A DNA stretch of 64,000 bases from Mobula hypostoma. Lineage: Eukaryota. Positions within the stretch are counted from its first letter, which is position 1; each line of letters begins with the position of its first letter. The stretch lies in contig NC_086097.1 of assembly GCF_963921235.1 (NCBI RefSeq), forward strand, positions 42,162,001 to 42,226,000, in the 5' to 3' direction. Of this stretch, positions 19,543 to 49,195 are shown in pieces. A program made the position numbers and the translations under genes. Below the pieces are notes generated by a model that was not told the origin of the DNA, did not search any database, and saw only the letters and a program-made list of their open reading frames with translations.

Positions 19543-21775
19543 AGATGTAGGATGCAATAGTTAGATCTAAAACTGGTGTATTATGCTTGAACAAGGAAGA
19601 CTACAATGGGATGAGGGAGGAGTTGGCTAATGTAGATTGGGAGCACAGGCTATTTGGTAGGACAGTTGAGGAACAGTGGAATACTTTCAAAGAGATTTTT
19701 CACAGTGCTCAACAAAAGTATATTCCAGTCAAAAGTAAGGACAGTAAGTGTGGGGAGAGCCAGCCTTGGATAACTAAGGAAATAAAAGATAGTATCAAAT
19801 TAAAAGCTCGTGTGTACAAAGTTGCAAAGAGTAGTGGGAGACTGGAGAATTGGGCAAACTTTAAAAAGCACCAGGGAACAACTAAACAAGAAATAAAGAA
19901 AGGGAAGATAAAAGTACGAAAGTAAATTAGCACAAAATATAAAAAGAGATAGCAAAAGTTTTTATAAATATATAAAGCGGAGGAGGGTGGCTGAAGTCAA
20001 CGTAGGTCCCTTGGAAGACAAGAGGAGGAAATTGATATTGAGTGATAAGGAAATGGCTGAGGCATTGAACGACTACTTTGTATCGGTCTTCGCAGTGGAG
20101 GACACGTCTAATATGACAAAGAAGGATGTTATGGACAAAATAGGAGGTGAGGACCTCGATAAAATCATTGTCGCTAAAGAGATAGTGATAAGCAAACTAG
20201 AGGCCCTGAAGGGGAGTAGAGGGGACTGATAAGTCCTCTGGTCCTGATGGGATGCATCCCAGGGTGCTGAGGGAATTGGCGGAGGTTATAGCAGACACGT
20301 TGATAATTACTTATCAAAACTCTCTCGACTCTGGGCAGGTCCCGGTGGATTGGAAGATAGAAATTGTCAAGCCACTTTTTAAAAAAGGATGTAGGCAAAA
20401 GACAGGCAATTACAGGCCAGTTAGCTTAACATCTGCAGTCGGGAAAATGCTTGAAGCTGTCATTAAGGAAGAAATAGTGAGACATTTAGAAAGGAGTGGT
20501 TCTATTAGACAGACACAGCATGGATTCAGAAAGGACAGGTCCTGTTTGACAAACTTACTGGAGTTCTTTGAGGACATAATGAGTGCAGTGGATAGAGGGG
20601 AACAGGTGGATACTTGGATTTCCAGAAGGTGTTTGATAAGGTGCTGCACAAGAGACTTATAAATAAGATACGGATGCATGGAGTTGGAGGAAGTGTATTG
20701 GCATGGATAGTGGATTGGTTAACCAATAGAAGGCAGAGAGTTGATACAAATGGGTGTTTCTCCGGTTGGCAGTCAGTGGTGAGTGGGGTGCCGCGGGGGT
20801 CGGTGCTGGGCCCGCAGCTGTTTACCAATAACACTGATGATTTGGAAGAGGGGACTGAGTGTAGCACAGCAAAATTTTCTGATGATACTAAACTGAGTGG
20901 AAAAGTAAATTGTACAGAGGATATGGAGAGTCTGCGGAGGGATACAGATAGGTTAAATGACAGGGCCAAGGTCTGGCAGATAGAATACAATGTTGGTAAA
21001 TGCGAGATCATCCACTTTGGAAGGAATAATAGAAGAGCAGATTATTATTTAAATGGTGAAAGATTGCAGCATTGTGTTGTGCAGAGGGACTTGGGAGTGC
21101 TTGTTCATGAATCGCAAAAAGTTGGCTTGCAGGTACAACAGGTTATTAAGAAGGCAAATGGAATGTTGGCCTTCATTGCTAGAGGGATTGAATTCAAGAG
21201 CAGGCAGGTCATGCTGCAACGATACAGGGTACTGGTGAGGCTGCACCTGGAGTACTGTGTGCAGTTCTGGTTTCCATACTTGAGGAAGGACGTACTGGCT
21301 TTGGAGGCAGTGCAGAGGAGGTTCACCAGGTTGATTCCAGGGATGAAGGGGTTAACCTATGAGGAGAGATTGAGTCACCTGGGATTATACTCTCTGGAGT
21401 TCAGAAGAATGAGAGGGGATCTTATAGAAACATACAAAATTTTGGAAGGGATGGCTAAGATAGAAGTAGGAAGGTTGTTTCCATTGGTAGGTGAGACTAG
21501 AACTAGGGGACATTGCCTCAAGATTCAGGGGAGAAGATTTAGGACGGAGATGAGGAGAAACTGTTTTTCCCAGAGAGTGGTGAATCTGTGGAATTCTCTG
21601 CCCAGGGAAGAGGTTGAAGCTCCTTCACTTTAAGATACAGTTAGATAGGTTTTTACGTAGTAAGGGAATTAAGGGGGAAGGGGTTATGGGTAAAAGGCAG
21701 GTAGATGGAGCTGAGTTTACAGACAGATCAGCCATGGCCTACTCCTGCTCCTATATCTTATGTTCTTATGTTCTA
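19543..21775 (+). mobile_element. CR1 LINE ORF2 (tether and RT) to 3' tail, relatively young
   Basis: 339-aa ORF 20614-21633 with VPRGSVLGPQLF, KFSDDTKL, HLEYCVQFW; (tgttctta)n tail. Confidence 0.95.
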
Positions 21776-22580: not shown

Positions 22581-23052
22581 CGCACTCTCAGCACCTTGGA
22601 TTCCTCATGATTAAGATCTTAAGAACATAAAAAAATGCAATCAAGAGTAGGCCATTCGGCCCCTTAAACTTCTCTACTATCAGTAAGATTGTGGGTAATC
22701 CTTCTGTACCACTAACCTTCACAAACCCCATAATCCTTATTCTGTGAATATTTGCAAATCTATCAACATCTGTCTTGGATACATTCAGTGGCCGAGCTTT
22801 TAAATCTCCCCTCAGTAGAGAATTCCAAAGATTCACCCAGTGAAGAAACTTCTCCTCATCTTTGTGCTATATTCATTTTCTCAGCAGACTGTTACCTTGT
22901 AGTCCTGCTCTGCCATTCAAAGGTTATGATTTATCCTCTGTCTAGAGTCTGTTATCCCAAACCCACAACATGAGTCCTTTGGTATCTAAAAATATGTGGG
23001 TCTCACCCTTGAATCATGTATTTCATGAACATCTACAATTCTCTGATGCAGA

Positions 23053-23737
23053 AGTAAGTGGTTTCTTCTTTTCTGTTACTGCATAGGCTAATTAAAATGG
23101 CTTCTTTGTTATGTTAACTGCTGAGAAATATCTCTCACTAGTAGTTTGTTTAGGATATATTATTGATAAGAGAAAGAAAGAACCAAGTGGGATAGATGTT
23201 ATTCTTTCTTGTGTGTCTGTAAGCTATTGTGATGCGCGGGTTTTTGAGCAGAAAGCGCGATGGGGAGAGAGAGAGTGGACGCGATGCTGTGAGCTGGCCG
23301 ACAGGAAGGACCCCGAGCCAGAGTCCGAGGTCCAGGGTCTTCGGCGAGGAGAGAAGAAGAAGATGGACTCGTGTGGAGCGTCTAGTCAACCACCGTGTTT
23401 GATACCAGGAGGGGAGCCGAGGTGGTCGGAGGGAATCAAATGGTGAAAAGAGGACCATTACTAGAACTCCAACTATTGTGCACAAAGAGGTTGAACTTTG
23501 ATAAGTTTGGCACCTTTTACTTTCCTTTTATATTTTATCTCTATTAATTACGTAGTTCCAGAAATATCTATAAATTGTAATCATTTACTCGTATATGGTG
23601 TATAGTCTGTTATTTGGCCGGGTGGGGTACATCACACAGCATCCACACAAACTTAATCACCAGTTTGGAGGGGCCAAAGGCTGCTTCCCCTAGACGACAG
23701 CGAGTTGAGCGAGCCTGAGGCTTACCAGGGGGCTACA
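23053..23737 (+). repeat. 5' LTR
   Basis: (a)gtaag...ggctaca; direct repeat of 26095-26781. Confidence 0.95.
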
Positions 23738-23739
23738 TT

Positions 23740-23757
23740 TGGAGGCTCGTCCGGGAT
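23740..23757 (+). promoter_or_regulatory. Primer binding site, tRNA-Pro
   Basis: TGGAGGCTCGTCCGGGAT, 17/18 match to the tRNA-Pro PBS TGGGGGCTCGTCCGGGAT. Confidence 0.9.
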
Positions 23758-23929
23758 TGAATTCAGTGGTGTGCTGCGTGATTGCCCTGTTTAAATCAGT
23801 GCTGCTGTGGCTCTGTGGGATTGCTGGTTATTACTGTATGTGTGTTGGTGGTGGGACCAGTGGCTGTCCATACTGTTAGGAGAGAGAGGAAAGAGTGGTC
23901 TAACTTGGAAATAGTGTCTGCGAATAAAT

Positions 23930-24310
23930 GTTCCCGCTCTGGCAGGCTCCGCCTGGCTTTTGGGATATTGTCCACCCCTAAAGGGGCGCAGACGTAGGAG
24001 ACGTGGGCGGAGTGGATCTCTCAGTTGTTAGATGAGTGGCAGTGCTCGGTTGAGGGAGAGTGACAGGGATTGGTTGAAAGTTTGAGTAGGCGGGCTGCTG
24101 ACGGTGTTAGAGCTGTCAGGTTCACTTACCCCGTAGTGACAGCTGCCAGTTATCTGAAAGAAGGGGAAAAGCTTTCAGTGTATCTTCTCTGGCTAGGAGG
24201 GCAGCTAAATTGCTTGCAGTGCCAGGGGGATCATTTCAGGGGATCAGCCCCTCCCTCAGTTGTTCAGCTGATCAGAGAGGTGTCCGGAAACTTAGTGGAG
24301 GCCCAGTGGG
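23930..24310 (+). pseudogene. PNMA/Ma-like gag remnant with internal deletions
   Basis: [60 protein letters not shown]. Confidence 0.75.
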
Positions 24311-24369
24311 GGAACAGCTTGGGGTTTCTGGGGGAGCACGTTCCCAGCAATGTACCAAGGAACATCCGA

Positions 24370-25200
24370 AAGGAAAAGACCCTATTCCTGAAGGCTTAGA
24401 GGGATCACACCCCAGTGTGTCATTACGGATAGATGGAAGCTATGCTAAGGCCATCCTCGACACCAGGGCATAGGTCAAGTTGTTGTACAGTTCATTTTAC
24501 AACCGGTGTCTGAAGCACTTACCCTTGACAACATTAAGGGCACTGGAGATTTGGGGTACCAGTGCCAGTGATTATCCAGAAGACGATGATTAGTTAGTGA
24601 ACCTGGAGTCCATGGGGGCGTTGTCTGTGCACACAGCATTTTGAGCTGCTTGTGAGGACGTGTGTAGCAGCCTTGGGCCAGTACCGAATTTAAACAAGAC
24701 CCGATTGTGGTACGGCCTGGGGGAAGTATCTGAGGGTGAGACCCTCTTAGTAGATGCTCCGAAATACCACAAGGGAGGGGAGTTGACCGCTAAAGACATC
24801 TCGGTGAGAGAGAGGTCGCAGCGACTGGACCCTGTAGCCGTGGAAGACATAGGCGGTGTGTGTGTGGAATATAGGACTCTGAACAGGCGCACTGTCATTG
24901 ACCAGAATACGGCCCTGAGGGCCAAAGACGCTACGGTCTGTTTGTATGGTGCGACGTGGTTTAACGTGCTGGATCTGAGGAGTGGATGTTGCCAGATCCC
25001 CATGAGTGAGGCCGACGAGGAGAAGACAGCCATTATAGGTTCCCTAGGATTCTTTTGATCTGAAAAGATGCCCCAGGGCATAACCAGAGCCCCTGCAACC
25101 TTCCCACGGGGCATGAAGAAGACCATGGGGAATGTGGAGTTTGGAGTTTTGGCGTATGTGGATGATCGCTTAGGGTTTGGATTCGCCTTGGGGGACGATG
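24370..25200 (+). pseudogene. Protease and N-terminal RT remnant
   Basis: [56 protein letters not shown]. Confidence 0.88.
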
Positions 25201-25217
25201 ATGTGAGGCGAGTGCCA

Positions 25218-25592
25218 GAGCCCGGGACAACCATTGAAGACTTGGAGTTCACGCTCATCAAAGTGGAGACGGAGAAATGGAATTCTGACCCGAAACTGCG
25301 GTCATGTATTGATGAATTAATGCAGAGAGATGAAACAATGTCCAACCTTCAAAAGGATCAGCAGACACTCAAGACATCGATCCAGAGCAGATTGGAAGAA
25401 GCTGGTGGTGTAATTGCATCCCAGATGGAGATGGACGCGAAACGGGAGTCAGAACTGCTGAGACTGGGGCGAAAGTTGGAGGAGTCAGAGGAGAAGCTGA
25501 CGTCTCGACTGCAGGAGGCTGAAGAGGCTGCAGAGGCAGCCCAGGCTAAATGCTTCAGTTTGGAGAAAATCAAACAGCAGCTATCGATCGAG
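25218..25592 (+). pseudogene. Three joined fragments of a sarcomeric myosin II heavy chain rod (possibly MYH16-like), intron-less, in frame with pol
   Basis: TIEDLEFTLIKVETEK..; [59 protein letters not shown]. These align ungapped to recalled MYH [37 protein letters not shown] and [27 protein letters not shown]. Confidence 0.9.
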
Positions 25593-26080
25593 GGAATGTG
25601 GAAGAATACGGATTCGAAGGATGATGTGCGGGATGTGTGGTACATGCTGCCTTTCACTAACTTCCCCTTGATTGAGGAAGAGACTTTTGACCCTTCTCCC
25701 ACTGAGTCAGGTGTAGTGGGGAGGGCTAGCTGTGGGCAGCCTGGGTTACAGCAGGACCCAGAAGGAAAAGAAGTGGGGCCCTGGACACGGGATAGGGGGC
25801 TCCGAGTTGCAGTGGAGGCATGAGTGAGAAATTGAGGAGTTGGCAAGCAGACCCGAGGTATCCCCAGTAGTGTCCGAGCCTTAGGGGTTTAGGTGAGAGG
25901 GTACCGGGGTCTCAGAGGATTAGGAAACTCCCAGATAGGTTGGCCTATGTAGCACCCGTGGGACCGGGCATAAGGTCCACTGTTTAGGGAGCGATGTCAC
26001 TGTGTGTACCTGGATTGGGTTTTTGTGTCTGCAGGAATGGTTGGAGAGTTATTTAGAAGTCATGAGGACATGACTTTATT

Positions 26081-26094
26081 TGGTGGGGGGAGAG
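26081..26094 (+). promoter_or_regulatory. Polypurine tract
   Basis: tggtggggggagag immediately before the 3' LTR TG. Confidence 0.8.
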
Positions 26095-26781
26095 TGTAAG
26101 GGGTTTCTTCTTTTATGTTACTGCGTAGGCTAATTAAAATGGCTTCTTTGTTATGTTAACTGCTGAGAAAGTTCTCTCGCTAGCAGCCTGTTTGGGTTAT
26201 ATTATTGATAAGAGAGAGAATGAACCAAGTGGGATAGATGTTATTCTTTCTTGTGTGTCTGTAAGCTATTGTGATGCGCGGGTTTTTGAGCAGAAGGCGC
26301 GATGGGGAGAGAGAGAGTGGACGCGATGCGGTGAGCTGGCCGACAGGAAGGACCCCGAGCCGGAGTCTGAGGTCCAGGGTCTTCGGCGAGGTGAGGAGAC
26401 GAAGACAGACTCGTGTGGAGCATCTGGTCGACCACCGTGGTTGATCCCAGGAGGCGGGTCGAGGTGGTCAGAGGGAATCGAATGGTGAAAAGAGGATCAT
26501 TACTAGAGCTCCAACTATTGTGCACGAAGAGGTTGAACTTTGATAAGTTTGGCCCCTTTTACTTTCCTTTTATATTTTATCTCTATTAATTACATAGTTC
26601 CAGAAATATCTATAAATTGTAATCATTTACTCATATATGGTGTATAGTCTGTTATTTGGCCGGGTGGGGTACATCACACAGCATCCACACAAACTTAATT
26701 ACCCAGTTTGGAGGGCCCAAAGGCTGCTTCCCCTAGACAACAGTGAGTTGAATGAGCCTGAGGCTTACCAGGGGGGCTACA
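26095..26781 (+). repeat. 3' LTR
   Basis: tgtaag...ggctaca followed by TSD caga. Confidence 0.95.
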
Positions 26782-28589
26782 CAGAGAATTTGAGATATTC
26801 AACCTTCTGCATAAATACATTCTACAAACATGCATGTAAAGCAGTTTATCCTCATCTCAGTCCTAAATGGTTGACATGATCCTAAAACTTTGTCCCCTGG
26901 TTGTAGACTTTCCAGTTAATGGAAGCATCAAATTGGCAACCACCTTGTTAATCTATCTCAAAACTCTGCATTGATCATTGCTCATTCTTCTGAACTCTAG
27001 TGAGTAGTGGCCAGTCCTATACAATTTCTTTTCATTAGGCAATCCCCCAGTGGATAAAGCGGTAGTTAACTATCCAAGCTTACAAGTGGCACTAAGTTAG
27101 GAAGCATAATAAATTGCAGATCCAAAACTTTAGCTTGGCTAACATAGATTGTCATTTGCATTCCAAGACACGGAAATCTTTCCTTGAACTTTCCTATTCA
27201 TTTCCCTTTCTGACTTTAGACACAATCCCTAAAATTTGCCTCCACCTCCTGAAGTCCTCTTTAATTTTGCATCAATTTTTGTTTAATGAAAACTTAGCAT
27301 GTTTTATTGGTTTAAAGGTACTTGGGAAAAGCAAACTACTATTAGAATGGAGTTCACATAGGAGCATTCAAGATATTAGGTCACAGAACAGCAGTTATCT
27401 GCTATATCCATGCTGCTTCTTGGAATAGTTCTCCTTTTTTGTTTTTCCTTACAGTTTTATTAATTTACATGCCAATTTGCATTTTTCTCGTTTCCATGAT
27501 GAGTCAGTGCTGTTTAATGTAATTAATGTCCATTGAATAAATTGTTCAAATCATTGTGTTCTTAAAAATATGAGTACTTGCAGCTTTTCAATGGTTTGGA
27601 AATATCAGATGCATTTTAAAATATTGACCATTCCTATATTTTTAAATTAAAATGTTTTGGATATGATGCAACAAAATATTTAAATTAACATTGTTCCATT
27701 TAAAGCATTTATTTCAAAGACGATCAGCTCAATAAGAATCATTATCGCTGTGTTTACTCCTAAACCATATCAAGTAACCTGTCAGAGAAGTCTTTGTGTG
27801 ACTTGTTAAATATTGATCGGTTTAAAGTAGAGCTATTGATTAGTTTTGGTGGATTACACAGAATAAATAAACTAAGGCAATGGTTTTGCTTCTTCTAGTA
27901 GTTCAGTGCAAGCTCGCCACAAGCAGTAGCAACAGACAGACCAGCTTTCAGTTCCACAAGCCATTCTCTGTGGAGGTAACTGACATGGTGGAGACCAGTT
28001 CCCTCCATTGCCTTTGGTTCAGGGAATGTTGTGGAGATTCCAGTAGCAAATCAGAAAACTCTCTGCTCAGATGAGCACAGGATTATTACTGCTGCTAGTG
28101 CCACCTGACGACAATTACAGGTAGAAATTTGTCCTCCAACACTTGAAGGTAGCACATAATATCCCAACAAGTGACGGGCAGCTACTGCTGACACTTGCCT
28201 TCTTTTCACATCCAAAGATTCATACTGGAAGAGATGGTCATTGACTGCCCATATGCCAGTCCCACATGTCTACTAGTTCCTCTCTGCCCCACAACGTATC
28301 CTCCAACCTTTGCTTTGGTGGATGACTACCTTTTTATCATTTCACTTTGCCAATACTAGTATTTTCTTCAGAATCCAGCATTCACATGAGGGTTGATTGG
28401 TAATGAGTTGAGCAGAAGGGTGGAAGGTAGCCAGGTGGGATATTTTGGGATGTGTGGTAGAGAACTATAAGGCTTGTAATCAGAGGAGACTCATCTTGTG
28501 AAAGAAAACAAACAAAAATCATGTGCTTCATAACGTGTCCCTCGAATGTTTGCAACCCTAATCAAAGAGAAGGTTAGAAATTTACAGCA

Positions 28590-30180
28590 GAGAAACAAGC
28601 ACCTTGGCCTACCATATCTGTGCTGACCATCAAGCACCCTTTTACGGAGAACATAAAACCTAGCACAGTATGGCACTGAACAAGCCATTTAACTCATGAT
28701 GGTGTGCCAATCTTGAAGCCAGTTTATAGTAAAAGTCTTCTTCCTGAGTATCATCCATTCAACACGTTCCCTTTGTGTGTTTATCTAAAAGTTGCTTAAA
28801 CCTACATCTCTTTGCATAGAAAACGTGCCCCTCATTTTACCCTTATGCATCCCCTCTCTAACCATAAAAGTTTGTCCTCTAGCGTAGATTCTGACTGTTT
28901 ACCTATCAATGATCCTTATGATTTTAAGAACCTCTACTAGGTCCAACCCTCCAACCCTCCAACGCTTAAGCAAGAATCAGCCAAGGTTGTCCAACCTTCC
29001 CTTATAGCTTATACATTCTAATCTAGACAGGTTTCTGGTAAACCTCATCTGCACACTCCACAGTTTCCACATCCATAGGGTGACCAGGACTGCCTGCAAT
29101 AGTCTAAGAGCAGTCTGACTGAAGTTTTATATAGCTGTCGCATGACATTCCTACTCTTATAGTCAATTAGTCAATACCCTTACCAATGAAGACAGGCATG
29201 CCATACACCTTCTTTACCACCTTATCCACATGTGTAGGCAATTTCAGTGTACCATGGACCTGGACCTCAAAGTTCCTCTATACCCCAATGCTATTAAGGG
29301 GTCTACCATTATCTGCATACTTTCTCTTTTCATATAACCTCCCAAAGTGCAACACCTCACACATGCCCAGATCAAACTCCATCTACTCATATCTATATCC
29401 TGCTGTGTTCTTTGATAGTCTTTTACATTGCCCACAACTTCACCAATCTTGGTGTCACCTACAAACTTGCTAATCCACCCATCTACATCTTCATCCAAAT
29501 TATTGGTGTACATCCCAAACAACAGAGCTCTCAACATTGATCCTTGCAGAATACCACTGGTCACAAACCTCCAGCCAGTACTTCAGCTGCTTCTTCTGGG
29601 TCAAAGTACAAATTCCCTCCTTTTTCCTTGAAAGGACATCCCATACCCTGGGTTAAACCCCTTTTCTTAATATAAGTATAAAATGCCCTGGGATTCTCCT
29701 TGATCCTGCTTACCAAGGACATTTCATTTTTTGACCTTCCGAGTTGTGTGATGGAGCACTTTCCTGCTATCTTTATATTCTCACAGGGATGTATGATTTT
29801 AGCTTTCTAGCCCTAATGTATGCCTTTTTTAACTTCCTGATTAAATTTAGGACTTCTCGTGTCTTCCAAACTTCCTTACCTTACTATCATTGTCCTTACT
29901 CTTACCAGAACAGGCCAAACCTAAACTGGGATCAGGCAGGCTTTAAACAATTCCCACATATCAGGCATCGCTTGTCTGACAGTAGCTGCTCTCAATCAAT
30001 GCCTCTTAACTCTGTCCTATTATGTCGAAATTTGCCCTCCCCCCAATTTAAATATCCTCCCACAAGATCTTTTATTTTTAATCCTTAATGATCTTAGCAT
30101 AATTAGTTGTCATCACTGTTGACAGAATTTTCACCCACTGTTTGGTTGGCTACCAGGTCTGGCTCATTTCTCAAAGTCAG
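28590..30180 (-). mobile_element. Old CR1 LINE fragments
   Basis: SGILQGSMLRALLFGMYTNNLDEDVDGWISKFVGDTKIG (29244-29564), with tail-like sequence near 28650. Confidence 0.75.
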
Positions 30181-47574: not shown

Positions 47575-49195
47575 TACATTAGAACATTGGGCCCAATAAA
47601 GTTTGCCAAATTCCTAATCACATAGTGTGTTAAAATAACCATTGAGTTAAGATTTGAAATTCTCTAAGGTACCACCCTGAACAACACAACTAGGTAGTTT
47701 ATTCTATGTGCCCACAACACGCTGTGTAAAAAAAAAATGCTTCCTGATGTAAGTCTGAAGTCTCCTTTCAACTAGTCTTCGCCTATAGCCCTATGTCCTC
47801 AATGAAGGATTAATTTTGGATTAGTAGCTAGCATCCATGCTACCTATCCCTTACTGTTTTTCAACATTTCTATCATGTCTCCTCTCATTCTACGTCTACT
47901 TGGGCTAAAAAGATTTAATTATTTCAATCACCTTTCTCTGAACTCTCTTCAATGCCTTCACATCCCTCACAAAATATGGAGACCAAAACTGTATACGGTA
48001 TTCAAGGTGTGGCAGCATTATCAGCCGAAGAACGATAACCTGAACACCCATTGGCTAGTAGCACCCTGCTATCTGTATTAACCCAAGCAAATGTCTAGCT
48101 GGAGACTTTCTCAGCATTTAACATAACAAAGAAGCCATTTTAATTCACAAACACAGCAATTTAAAAGATTAACATAACAAAGAAGCCATTTTAAATTTAA
48201 CATACAAAAAAAAAGATGCTGTACATATGTATATATTTAATCACTCATGTAGTTGATCTATTGTTTTTATTCTTCTTTCAACCTTGGGTATAAACATTTC
48301 CGGCACTGTGTGTATTACCTCTTTAAATCTTTCTCATTGTTCCCCAACTGACTCAACATCAAGCAGTTCCTTCCAGTTTACCTTCTGAAGTCTTTGCTGC
48401 ATCTGCACAAACTTTGCCTTTCGGAAATTCAATTTAATGGCTTTGATTTTTACTGAAAACTCTCCCAAAAAAAAAACTTCCAGACTAGCAAGATTATGAT
48501 CCCTTGTTCCTAAAGGCTCAACAACTTCTGTACTCAAAATTCTATCCTGATTGTTACGGAATATCAAATCTATACAGGCCTCTCTTCTTGTTGGTGCATT
48601 TACATACTGGATCAAAAAACAATCATTCAATAACTCAATGAATTCACTTTCCTGTAATCTATTAGTCACTGAGTTCTCCCACTCAAAAGTTGGTAAATTA
48701 AAGTCATCCATAACTATAACATCACCCTCAGAAATTGGTTTTCTATTATTCTGATAGAGTTAAATGAATTCACTTTCCCGTAATCTATTAGTCACTGGGT
48801 TCTCCCACTCAATATTTTGGAAATTAAAGTCACCCATAACTATAACATCACCCTCAGAAATTGGTTTTCTAATATTCTGATAGAGTTGTTTATTAAAATC
48901 ATTATCAACATTAGGGGTCTATAACATACACTCAATGTTATTCCTTTATCCTTATAGCCTTCAATTCTCACCCAGATATCTTCAGAGTCTTGATTCATCT
49001 CTTATCAAAAGCATCATGTTTAAATTCTCTCTTTTGTATATAGCTGCTCCTCTACCTTTACACTCTTGTCTATCTTTCCTAAGTGAAGTATATCTTTTAA
49101 CACTATATTCATCTCCAGCCTTTGAGGTCAGACAGGTTTCTGTTATTGCTATTATAGCATACTTATATGCACTTACATATAATTCCAGCTCCTGG
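47575..49195 (-). mobile_element. Old CR1-group LINE fragments (EN and 3' end)
   Basis: AIIAITETCL; DDFNLPTFEW..FLIQYVNAPTRREACIDLIF..LGTRDHN. Confidence 0.75.
48637..48887. repeat. Tandem duplication, two ~125-bp copies
   Basis: 48637-48761 repeated at 48763-48887. Confidence 0.9.

Follow-up and report, generated by a model that had tools for sequence, protein, structure and literature searches.

In acutely transforming retroviruses, spliced host coding sequence replaces part of pol, leaving a virus that is defective and depends on a helper. Host messages have also been reported inside long terminal repeat (LTR) retrotransposons: Tan et al. (2016, Genome Res 26:1663, PMC5131818) document partial, intron-free mRNAs within LTR elements, with microsimilarity at the switch points, and indicate that LTR-mediated chimeras can be recopied as non-autonomous elements. 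The present work concerns a 64,000-nucleotide stretch of the genome of the ray Mobula hypostoma (NCBI RefSeq assembly GCF_963921235.1, contig NC_086097.1, positions 42,162,001 to 42,226,000 of the forward strand; this whole stretch is called the window below), in which a Ty3/Gypsy element carries pieces of a myosin heavy chain rod directly behind the YVDD motif of its reverse transcriptase (RT). With a probability that can be put at about 0.85, this copy belongs to a non-autonomous Ty3/Gypsy family of myliobatiform rays that captured a myosin mRNA, spread, and is now decaying.

Like the transforming retroviruses, the ray family has host coding sequence in place of part of pol and depends on a helper, but its host sequence is a structural rod fragment without the motor and with no sign of acting on the cell, its carrier is a germ-line retrotransposon, and its 5' joint is without a visible splice donor. 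It agrees with the LTR-mediated retrocopies of PMC5131818 in that a partial intron-free mRNA lies between discontinuous parts of an LTR element, with microsimilarity at both switches, no poly(A) tail and an in-frame fusion, and in that the chimera was copied on as a non-autonomous ('pseudo-LTR') element. The retrocopies of Tan et al. are reported as single- or few-copy and young (5/7 in zebrafish, 4/10 in chicken), whereas at least 182 copies of one subtype are present here; moreover, unlike those cases, the joints are common to two ray families and the 5' joint falls on the first bases of an exon. Maize Bs1, as presented there (PMC5131818), is a plant element with 1-5 copies and fragments of three genes, while in contrast the ray family has hundreds of copies, draws on one donor gene and inhabits a cartilaginous fish. 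Non-autonomous LTR elements such as MaLR/MERVL (mentioned in PMC5131818) are likewise without integrase yet amplified, but the internal region of the ray family holds a host gene fragment, and a myosin-free, integrase-less relative of the family also exists.

A literature search, with subscription journals outside its coverage, found no paper on this ray Gypsy-myosin family, which is a large and unusually prolific example of a known process and not a new process. It offers the whole life history of one capture in a vertebrate: the donor is extant, both joints are placed within a few bases, comparison with a myosin-free relative is possible, and among the deletion derivatives one has been amplified at least 182-fold. 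It also shows that chimeras of this sort can persist in cartilaginous fishes as successful, long-lived repeat families, beyond single retrocopies.

A myosin rod and its donor gene

The open frame at 25059-25823 (plus strand, 254 codons) fuses RT, myosin rod and pol tail: it reads MPQG..YVDD (25155-25166), then the coiled coil, then KNTDSKDD..VWYMLPF, with some 125 codons of myosin rod following YVDD in the pol frame. A phmmer search against Protein Data Bank (PDB) chains returned 15 sequences at E<=10, 12 of them myosin heavy-chain chains or constructs. It places the coiled coil on three collinear regions of cardiac myosin MYH7, residues 953-1077, 1145-1220 and 1348-1423, with an E-value of 3.8e-6 for the whole MYH7 chain and a best PDB match of 1.2e-8 to the MYH7(1361-1425) chimera 4xa3. 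Both the run of the RT frame into about 125 residues of coiled coil and the borders of the myosin pieces (25218-25385, 25386-25487 and 25488-25592) had been proposed in a sequence-only reading of this DNA; the frame is as it described, and its borders agree with those given here within about 6 bases.

All three myosin segments lie on the plus strand and can be assigned to exons of a single host gene, the donor described below. Segment 1 (25224-25388, MYH7 ~953-1003) joins the last 54 nt of donor exon A to the next exon without an intron; it is identical to donor exon A at 50 of 54 bases (25224-25277), and 139 of 169 bases (25224-25392) agree with a long, ancestral-like copy of the family on the minus strand of C1:175,392,501-175,395,500 (L053). 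Segment 2 (25389-25484, RLEEAGG ... RKLEE), aligned with PDB chains at MYH7 ~1145-1180, shares 52 of 62 bases with donor exon E' over 25423-25484. Segment 3 (25485-25593, MYH7 ~1382-1425) comprises the last codons of the preceding exon and the first ~104 nt of exon G, with 89 of 102 bases identical to donor exon G over 25492-25593, and it terminates at the 3' capture joint within CGAGG (25589-25593). The coiled coil is a myosin rod, with 84-93% DNA identity to three exons of one host MYH gene. As the window frame taken alone scores modestly, the significance of the match rests on the donor DNA and on longer family members. The two frames of L053 score 38.0 bits (E 6.4e-10) and 19.1 bits with the Pfam profile Myosin_tail_1 (PF01576), and the L053 frame spanning exons E to G (189 aa) matches 5357 myosin heavy chains in a collection of 5.8 billion proteins, the best at E 2.7e-31.

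Myosin genes were sought in the genome with a Pfam profile and by protein search, and the gene at C68:14.52-14.72 Mb is the donor, or the donor's closest survivor. Exons are labelled A to G after the layout of a typical sarcomeric gene on C40. A genome search with exon A of that C40 gene gave 29 matches: 10 ordinary sarcomeric exons at 77-100%, two divergent genes at 47% (C36:112.73 Mb and C68:14.52 Mb), and 17 weaker matches at 37-46%, three of which were confirmed as element copies. In exon A, the protein identity of L053 is 79% to the donor against 37-40% to all other paralogues, and only 20 of 228 bases differ from the donor; in exon G, the protein identity of the element is 70-77% to the donor and 52-62% to the C40 gene, and the DNA identity to the donor is 110/121 for L053 and 113/121 for another copy, L052. 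In a tree of exon A, which comprises 76 columns and is weak in its deeper placement, element and donor pair with 100/100 support (donor tip 0, element tip 0.25) on a long branch apart from both the MYH16 clade and the other sarcomeric clade. Among other candidates, the C40 gene was rejected at only 40-47% identity to the element over exons A-D, and the myosins on C45, at C68:25.47 Mb and at C36:126.1 Mb were rejected as non-muscle or smooth-muscle types whose matches cover at most 78 residues at 24-43% identity.

A MYH16-like origin had been suggested on the sequence alone, and it holds for one feature of the donor. Its exon, like that of the host MYH16, ends ..EKQ|gt, which is five codons short of the place (..ENK|gt) where three other sarcomeric paralogues have this border, and this intron position is of MYH16 type. 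However, the host orthologue of MYH16 is the gene at C36:112.71-112.73 Mb, where identity to named MYH16 proteins is 64-68% over exon A and rises to 76-83% over the next exon tested, while the donor reaches only 43-47% and 60-62% with every named MYH class. With 43-62% identity to any named class and its own long branch, the donor was rejected as the MYH16 orthologue; judged from its exon sequences, it is a very divergent sarcomeric MYH paralogue. The tree with host MYH paralogues called for in the sequence-only reading has the element beside the C68 gene.

The donor (G000:C68:14,524,969-14,723,907) spans ~200 kb, a length that suggests very large introns, and at a distance of 0.6 Mb there is a tandem array of at least 8 fast-type MYH copies (C68:15.31-15.90 Mb). 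Its exon upstream of exon A was not located; the 3 kb upstream of exon A in the C40 gene are free of exons. A protein search with donor exon A gave no match at E<=1e-5 among 377 candidates in the searched length range, within which the donor's product may be absent from the protein collection. The end of the donor intron before exon G (ggattccaacag) resembles the exonic bases that lead into exon G in the element (GGAGTCCAA; L058, 134-145), a resemblance that is probably due to chance. Elsewhere in the genome, intron-free myosin-tail stretches with stops are found at C18:48745523-48746731, C50:30689110, C184:304888, C157:172388 and C21:138691427, and these may be ordinary processed pseudogenes; in their DNA they have nothing in common with the family.

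cDNA structure, capture joints and amplified deletion derivatives

In both the donor and the C40 gene, introns with canonical AG and GT lie between pieces that adjoin in the element, and the donor splice sites lie at MYH-type positions, while the element is intron-free. The window copy crosses the donor exon junction A|B without an intron; in long copies and gene models the same holds for A|B, B|C, C|D and D|E, as well as for F|G at TCCAA|GAAGAAG. Because donor exon junctions are crossed without introns, the insert came from a spliced mRNA, and the test of exon-exon junctions proposed with the sequence-only reading gave a positive answer.

The ancestral layout can be read from L053, where protease, a partly deleted RT and a complete RNase H ending ..NIDVDVLSRQVPEGVDMDK are followed by myosin exons and the pol tail. 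In the same frame after RNase H, donor exon A begins at its first codon and the rod runs to ..RRELEE; it then jumps to the last two codons of exon F and to exon G as far as ..LQIE, after which come EKEKNTDS..VWYMLPF.. and ..SQRIRK, which match, weakly but in consistent places, the C-terminal 20-145 residues of several full-length Gypsy pol proteins. For comparison, the full-length ray Gypsy polyprotein P0022 (1566 aa; Pfam domains PNMA-gag, zf-CCHC, RVT_1, RNase H, Integrase_H2C2 and rve) has the end of its RNase H domain at residue 1238 and the start of the integrase zinc domain at 1401. The 5' joint maps to ~1270, between the two, hence the insert sits where integrase lies. L053 keeps RNase H and is without integrase, and a tblastn search with P0022 found neither of the two in the window element; with the series protease, RT, RNase H, integrase thus incomplete in both copies, the element is a non-autonomous derivative. 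A relative without myosin and without integrase (L067, G000:C18:78763600-78764600) passes from RNase H through a 23-residue linker directly to the same pol tail, reading ..LDMDK EWESAPAPGVKAMCQPTLTVEAE EKERNTDSEDDE.., and it is either an element of the sort that took up the myosin or a deletion product that arose in parallel.

Both joints were read base by base from the myosin-free L067, the chimera and the donor. At the 5' joint, L067 has GGACAAG GAGTGGGAAAG, the donor has cag|GAGCGGGAGAG and the chimera GGACAAG GATCGGGAGAG (a second copy has GAG); the crossover falls within a shared GAG, and 9 of the 11 following bases are common to element and donor. At the 3' joint, L067 reads GCCGAGGAAAAGGAA, the donor ATCGAGGTAGAGGAG and the chimera ATCGAGGAAAAGGAG, with the crossover within a shared CGAGG inside exon G, 30 bases before the exon end, and with similarity at about 10 of 13 further bases. 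A contig from the sequencing run X19 departs from the window at 25593 and goes on as donor exon G sequence, thus confirming the position of the 3' joint. Both capture joints preserve the reading frame and fall within 5-nt stretches common to element and mRNA, with more similarity on the flanks, and their microsimilarity fits the template-switch model of LTR-mediated retroposition, as set out in PMC5131818.

The subfamily of the window copy differs from this layout by two deletions. One joins RT (at about P0022 residue 988) to exon A (at about 25216-25224), and the other removed 439 nt between two 11-nt direct repeats, AGATTGGAAGA, which stand at positions 2013 and 2452 of the reverse complement of L053 (L053rc) and are reduced to a single copy at 25389-25399 in the window (plus strand), a joint specific to the subfamily. 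Copies with other internal deletions include L052 and the gene models P0002, P0012 and P0015. Two earlier claims are changed by this order of events. Myosin had been said to stand in place of RNase H and integrase; the position of integrase is indeed the one it occupies, but it was a later deletion at short repeats, in the window's subfamily, that removed RNase H along with the end of RT. Likewise, the three separate rod regions do exist as three collinear MYH7 matches, but all three derive from a single collinear cDNA, parts of which dropped out through internal deletions at short repeats, and they do not stand for three captures.

The family is not a one-off. A 501-nt stretch across the RT/myosin junction gave 953 first-look candidates in the 3.48-Gb genome, and the 40 of these 953 that were scored, the window among them, all cover at least 497 of the 501 nt at 90-100% identity. 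The deletion joint of the subfamily occurs at 182 places, 88 of them exact, while a reversed-pattern control gave 0; the deletion derivative itself has therefore been copied many times, and 182 is a lower bound for the copies of the window's subtype. With up to 3 mismatches, the L053 version of the 3' capture joint is found at 46 places, that of the window differing from it by more than 3 bases, and the original 5' joint at only 2. Seven copies were fetched, and every one is collinear with the window over the length from gag to within the 3' LTR.

Gene models at NCBI for three species, Mobula hypostoma, Hypanus sabinus and Hemitrygon akajei, share the internal and 3' joints of the window copy; several of these models bear the name 'myosin heavy chain ...-like' or 'putative uncharacterized protein MYH16'. 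The Hypanus models have common substitutions of their own together with the joints seen in the window, a pattern that suggests a single capture followed by activity in both lineages, the capture then being probably older than the divergence of the ray families in which these joints occur. Contigs from four public sequencing runs, representing two coded organisms, cover all 30 bins of 24600-26100, and some, such as X19 record 27 (25087-25365), pass from RT into myosin; one contig of run X1, which may derive from the assembled sample, is identical to the window over 25243-25416. Given the 182 places, the gene models of other species and these contigs, the joint is not an assembly chimera.

In public ray genomes, copies of the family carry the annotation 'myosin heavy chain-like' or 'MYH16', one of them fused in a gene model to a LYR-domain protein; counts of ray myosin genes and gene-family studies are inflated unless the family is masked. 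In two gene models, P0005 (Hypanus sabinus) and P0013 (Hemitrygon akajei), the myosin piece of the repeat is fused to other coding sequence; P0005 begins with a LYR-family domain (Pfam E 2e-12) and P0013 is without a Pfam match, and the two are either exonised copies or annotation artefacts.

Origin and fate of the chimera

An ancestral Gypsy element would have acquired about 1 kb of spliced myosin mRNA during reverse transcription, most likely through two template switches guided by microsimilarity inside a virus-like particle. The insert opens with the first codon of exon A, breaks off midway through exon G and is in frame with the RNase H before it and the pol tail after it. Still equipped with LTRs, primer-binding site, polypurine tract and, presumably, packaging signals, the chimera would have been copied in trans by proteins of autonomous relatives and so have reached hundreds of places; the absence of integrase, and in the window's subfamily also of RNase H, from an element that amplified nonetheless points to proteins supplied in this way. 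Deletions between short direct repeats produced the subfamilies, that of the window losing the end of RT, RNase H and ~440 nt of rod, which brought the three myosin pieces directly behind YVDD. The fused frame would now be a decaying passenger and not a working gene.

How did the myosin sequence enter the element? The sequence-only reading had invoked transduction of a spliced mRNA as in retroviral oncogene capture; the spliced mRNA stands, while the mechanism looks more like double template switching. In a classical transduction, an element upstream of exon A would be joined to it by splicing or read-through, followed by one recombination at the 3' end. This route is unlikely, though it would account for a 5' joint within 3 bases of the splice acceptor of donor exon A, for a 3' joint inside an exon, as expected of a single recombination, and for the reading frame kept at both. 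A splice would call for a donor site in the element, but L067 reads GACAAG|GAGTGG at the joint, with no GT or GC donor, and three more distant autonomous relatives read AAG|AGTGTC there, also with no GT; the 9 of 11 shared bases after the joint, moreover, are not needed by a splice and are usable by a template switch. An origin at the DNA level, by recombination (microhomology-mediated repair or gene conversion) with an integrated myosin cDNA copy, is improbable. DNA end joining could also make use of the short microhomologies at the joints, and intron-free myosin-tail stretches are available in the genome, such as that at C18:48745523-48746731 with 407 contiguous profile positions and 6 stops; but the intron-free stretches L009-L013, L016, L020, L021 and L034 share no DNA with the element, and those with contiguous runs stem from another section of the rod (profile positions 514-992). 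A pair of joints that are both in frame, have the same orientation and lie precisely where pol tolerates interruption is also simpler to obtain from one reverse-transcription event.

That the coiled coil is a chance resemblance or an assembly artefact is scarcely credible: the modest PDB myosin scores of 30-38 bits, the window frame's lack of a Pfam myosin match and the common composition of coiled coils, which inflates weak matches, would speak for it, but they are set against the DNA identity to three exons of one host gene, the thousands of myosins matched by the long copy, the many places with the deletion joint against none in the control, and the contigs of four public runs that cover the joint. 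That the RT-myosin-tail fusion is functional and kept by selection, for the element (for instance through coiled-coil-driven assembly) or for the host, is very improbable. In its favour, the reading frame is kept at both capture joints, such copies have given rise to gene predictions at NCBI, and the window frame is open for 254 codons; it is also open throughout in 2 of 7 sister copies, with one internal stop in 4 and a frameshift in 1, on the assumption that a single stop common to all is the terminal stop of the frame. However, 3 open frames in 8 fit a rough neutral estimate of about 4% decay per copy, L053 differs from the donor by 8.5 synonymous and 27.5 non-synonymous changes over 134 codons (ratio ~0.95), and successive subfamilies deleted large and differing parts of the rod, which probably broke the heptad register. 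On these comparisons of coding sequence, the fused frame shows no clear sign of selection and appears to be a passenger. A related idea, about as doubtful as the DNA-level origin, is that the coiled coil gives the integrase-less element a self-associating protein that competes for the helper's particles or tempers the helper; if true, this would explain the hundreds of copies of the chimera, in contrast to other LTR-mediated retrocopies, and its activity in two ray families.

Several observations weigh against the capture, spread and decay proposed here for the ray family. No autonomous partner with matching LTRs was identified among 14141 RT and 2410 RNase H Gypsy candidates, and the closest full-length relatives with long open frames are only 55-71% identical in RT. 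The 5' joint coincides with the first three bases of donor exon A, and a random switch would meet an exon border only a few times per hundred by rough estimate. This coincidence could possibly have arisen by chance, at the few per cent estimated, or possibly through a switch on a partly spliced pre-mRNA, where the match comes to 11 of 13 bases once the acceptor AG is counted. The 5' microsimilarity in the mature mRNA was read downstream of the joint only. Integrase was either replaced by myosin in one step or, as in L067, already lost before the capture. In the window copy, dN/dS is 0.46 in exon E' and 0.32 in exon G (from 11 and 19 differences), low values that could hint at constraint. As for the myosin match itself, the profile search suggested in the sequence-only reading failed on the window frame, with no match to Myosin_tail_1 at E<=1, and the 38.0 bits of L053 lie just under Pfam's curated cut-off of 38.1. 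In a library of 1.8 billion proteins the window frame had 20 matches at E<=0.001 and no full-length myosin among them: the only myosins are two fragments, P0018 and P0019, and the other 18 are non-myosin, mostly short gene models that copy the same repeat and otherwise retroelement pol proteins. Finally, no RNA holder is listed among the sequencing runs, and the family contigs in three runs guessed to be RNA (the 'RNA' labels of X17-X19 being guesses) were not counted as expression.

The window copy and its surroundings

The copy that bears these myosin pieces is a two-LTR element at 23053-26781, with an internal region of only ~2.3 kb, and all its features lie on the plus strand. A 4-bp target-site duplication, CAGA, read directly from the sequence, flanks it at 23049-23052 on the left and 26782-26785 on the right. 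The 5' LTR of 685 nt (23053-23737) and the 3' LTR (26095-26781, with TG...CA ends) were delimited by direct repeat and alignment, the latter also by reading of the sequence; they are identical at 640 of 685 positions (Kimura two-parameter distance 0.069), the 5' LTR beginning with A where the 3' LTR has the expected T and ending in CA. Two bases past the 5' LTR begins a primer-binding site, TGG... (23740-23757), which may resemble a tRNA-Pro site, and the polypurine tract GGTGGGGGGAGAG stands immediately before the 3' LTR (26082-26094), both recognised by reading of the sequence.

The remnants of gag and pol were located by tblastn with P0022. A decayed gag of PNMA type and a protease remnant, with stops and deletions, occupy 23944-24641, gag matching P0022 residues 155-326 (27% identity, E 6e-7) and protease residues 437-574 (49%, E 2e-26). 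At 24792-25208 is what is left of RT, interrupted by an internal deletion and by a stop (25056-25058); it corresponds to P0022 residues 816-988 (47%, E 1.7e-36), or the first two thirds of RT, and the match stops at about residue 988, short of the end of the RT domain. The nearest named proteins of this RT are 'Gypsy retrotransposon integrase-like', and Pfam RVT_1 reaches only E 0.13 on the window frame, below its cut-off. By its LTRs, target-site duplication, primer-binding site, polypurine tract and RT lineage, the element is of Ty3/Gypsy (Metaviridae) type; the sequence-only reading had also called it a Gypsy element with two LTRs and a target-site duplication.

Behind the myosin segments, a pol C-terminal tail extends over 25594-25972, downstream of the place of integrase in full elements; it comprises KNTDSKDD..VWYMLPF from ~25605 and, in another frame, SQRIRKLPDRLAY at 25910-25948, the latter having been read as pol-like from the letters alone. 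This view is sustained by blastx against several full-length Gypsy pol proteins, in which the tail matches, in consistent order, the C-terminal ~20-145 residues of P0037, P0040, P0041 and P0042, with E-values of 0.004-0.3 in a small database, that is, weak but consistently placed matches.

Other repeats accompany the element in the window. Just upstream, a long frame at 19912-21633 (plus strand), with an RT domain at 20596-21633 (Pfam RVT_1 E 5e-11, above cut-off), looks like a LINE-type element, and downstream, frames on the minus strand at 29244-29806 read like an RT fragment, for example in the ..FADDTKIG-like stretch ..FVGDTKIGEVV... At 48079-48194, on the minus strand, ~90-115 nt match the start of the element's LTR at 80-100% identity and may be a solo-LTR fragment.

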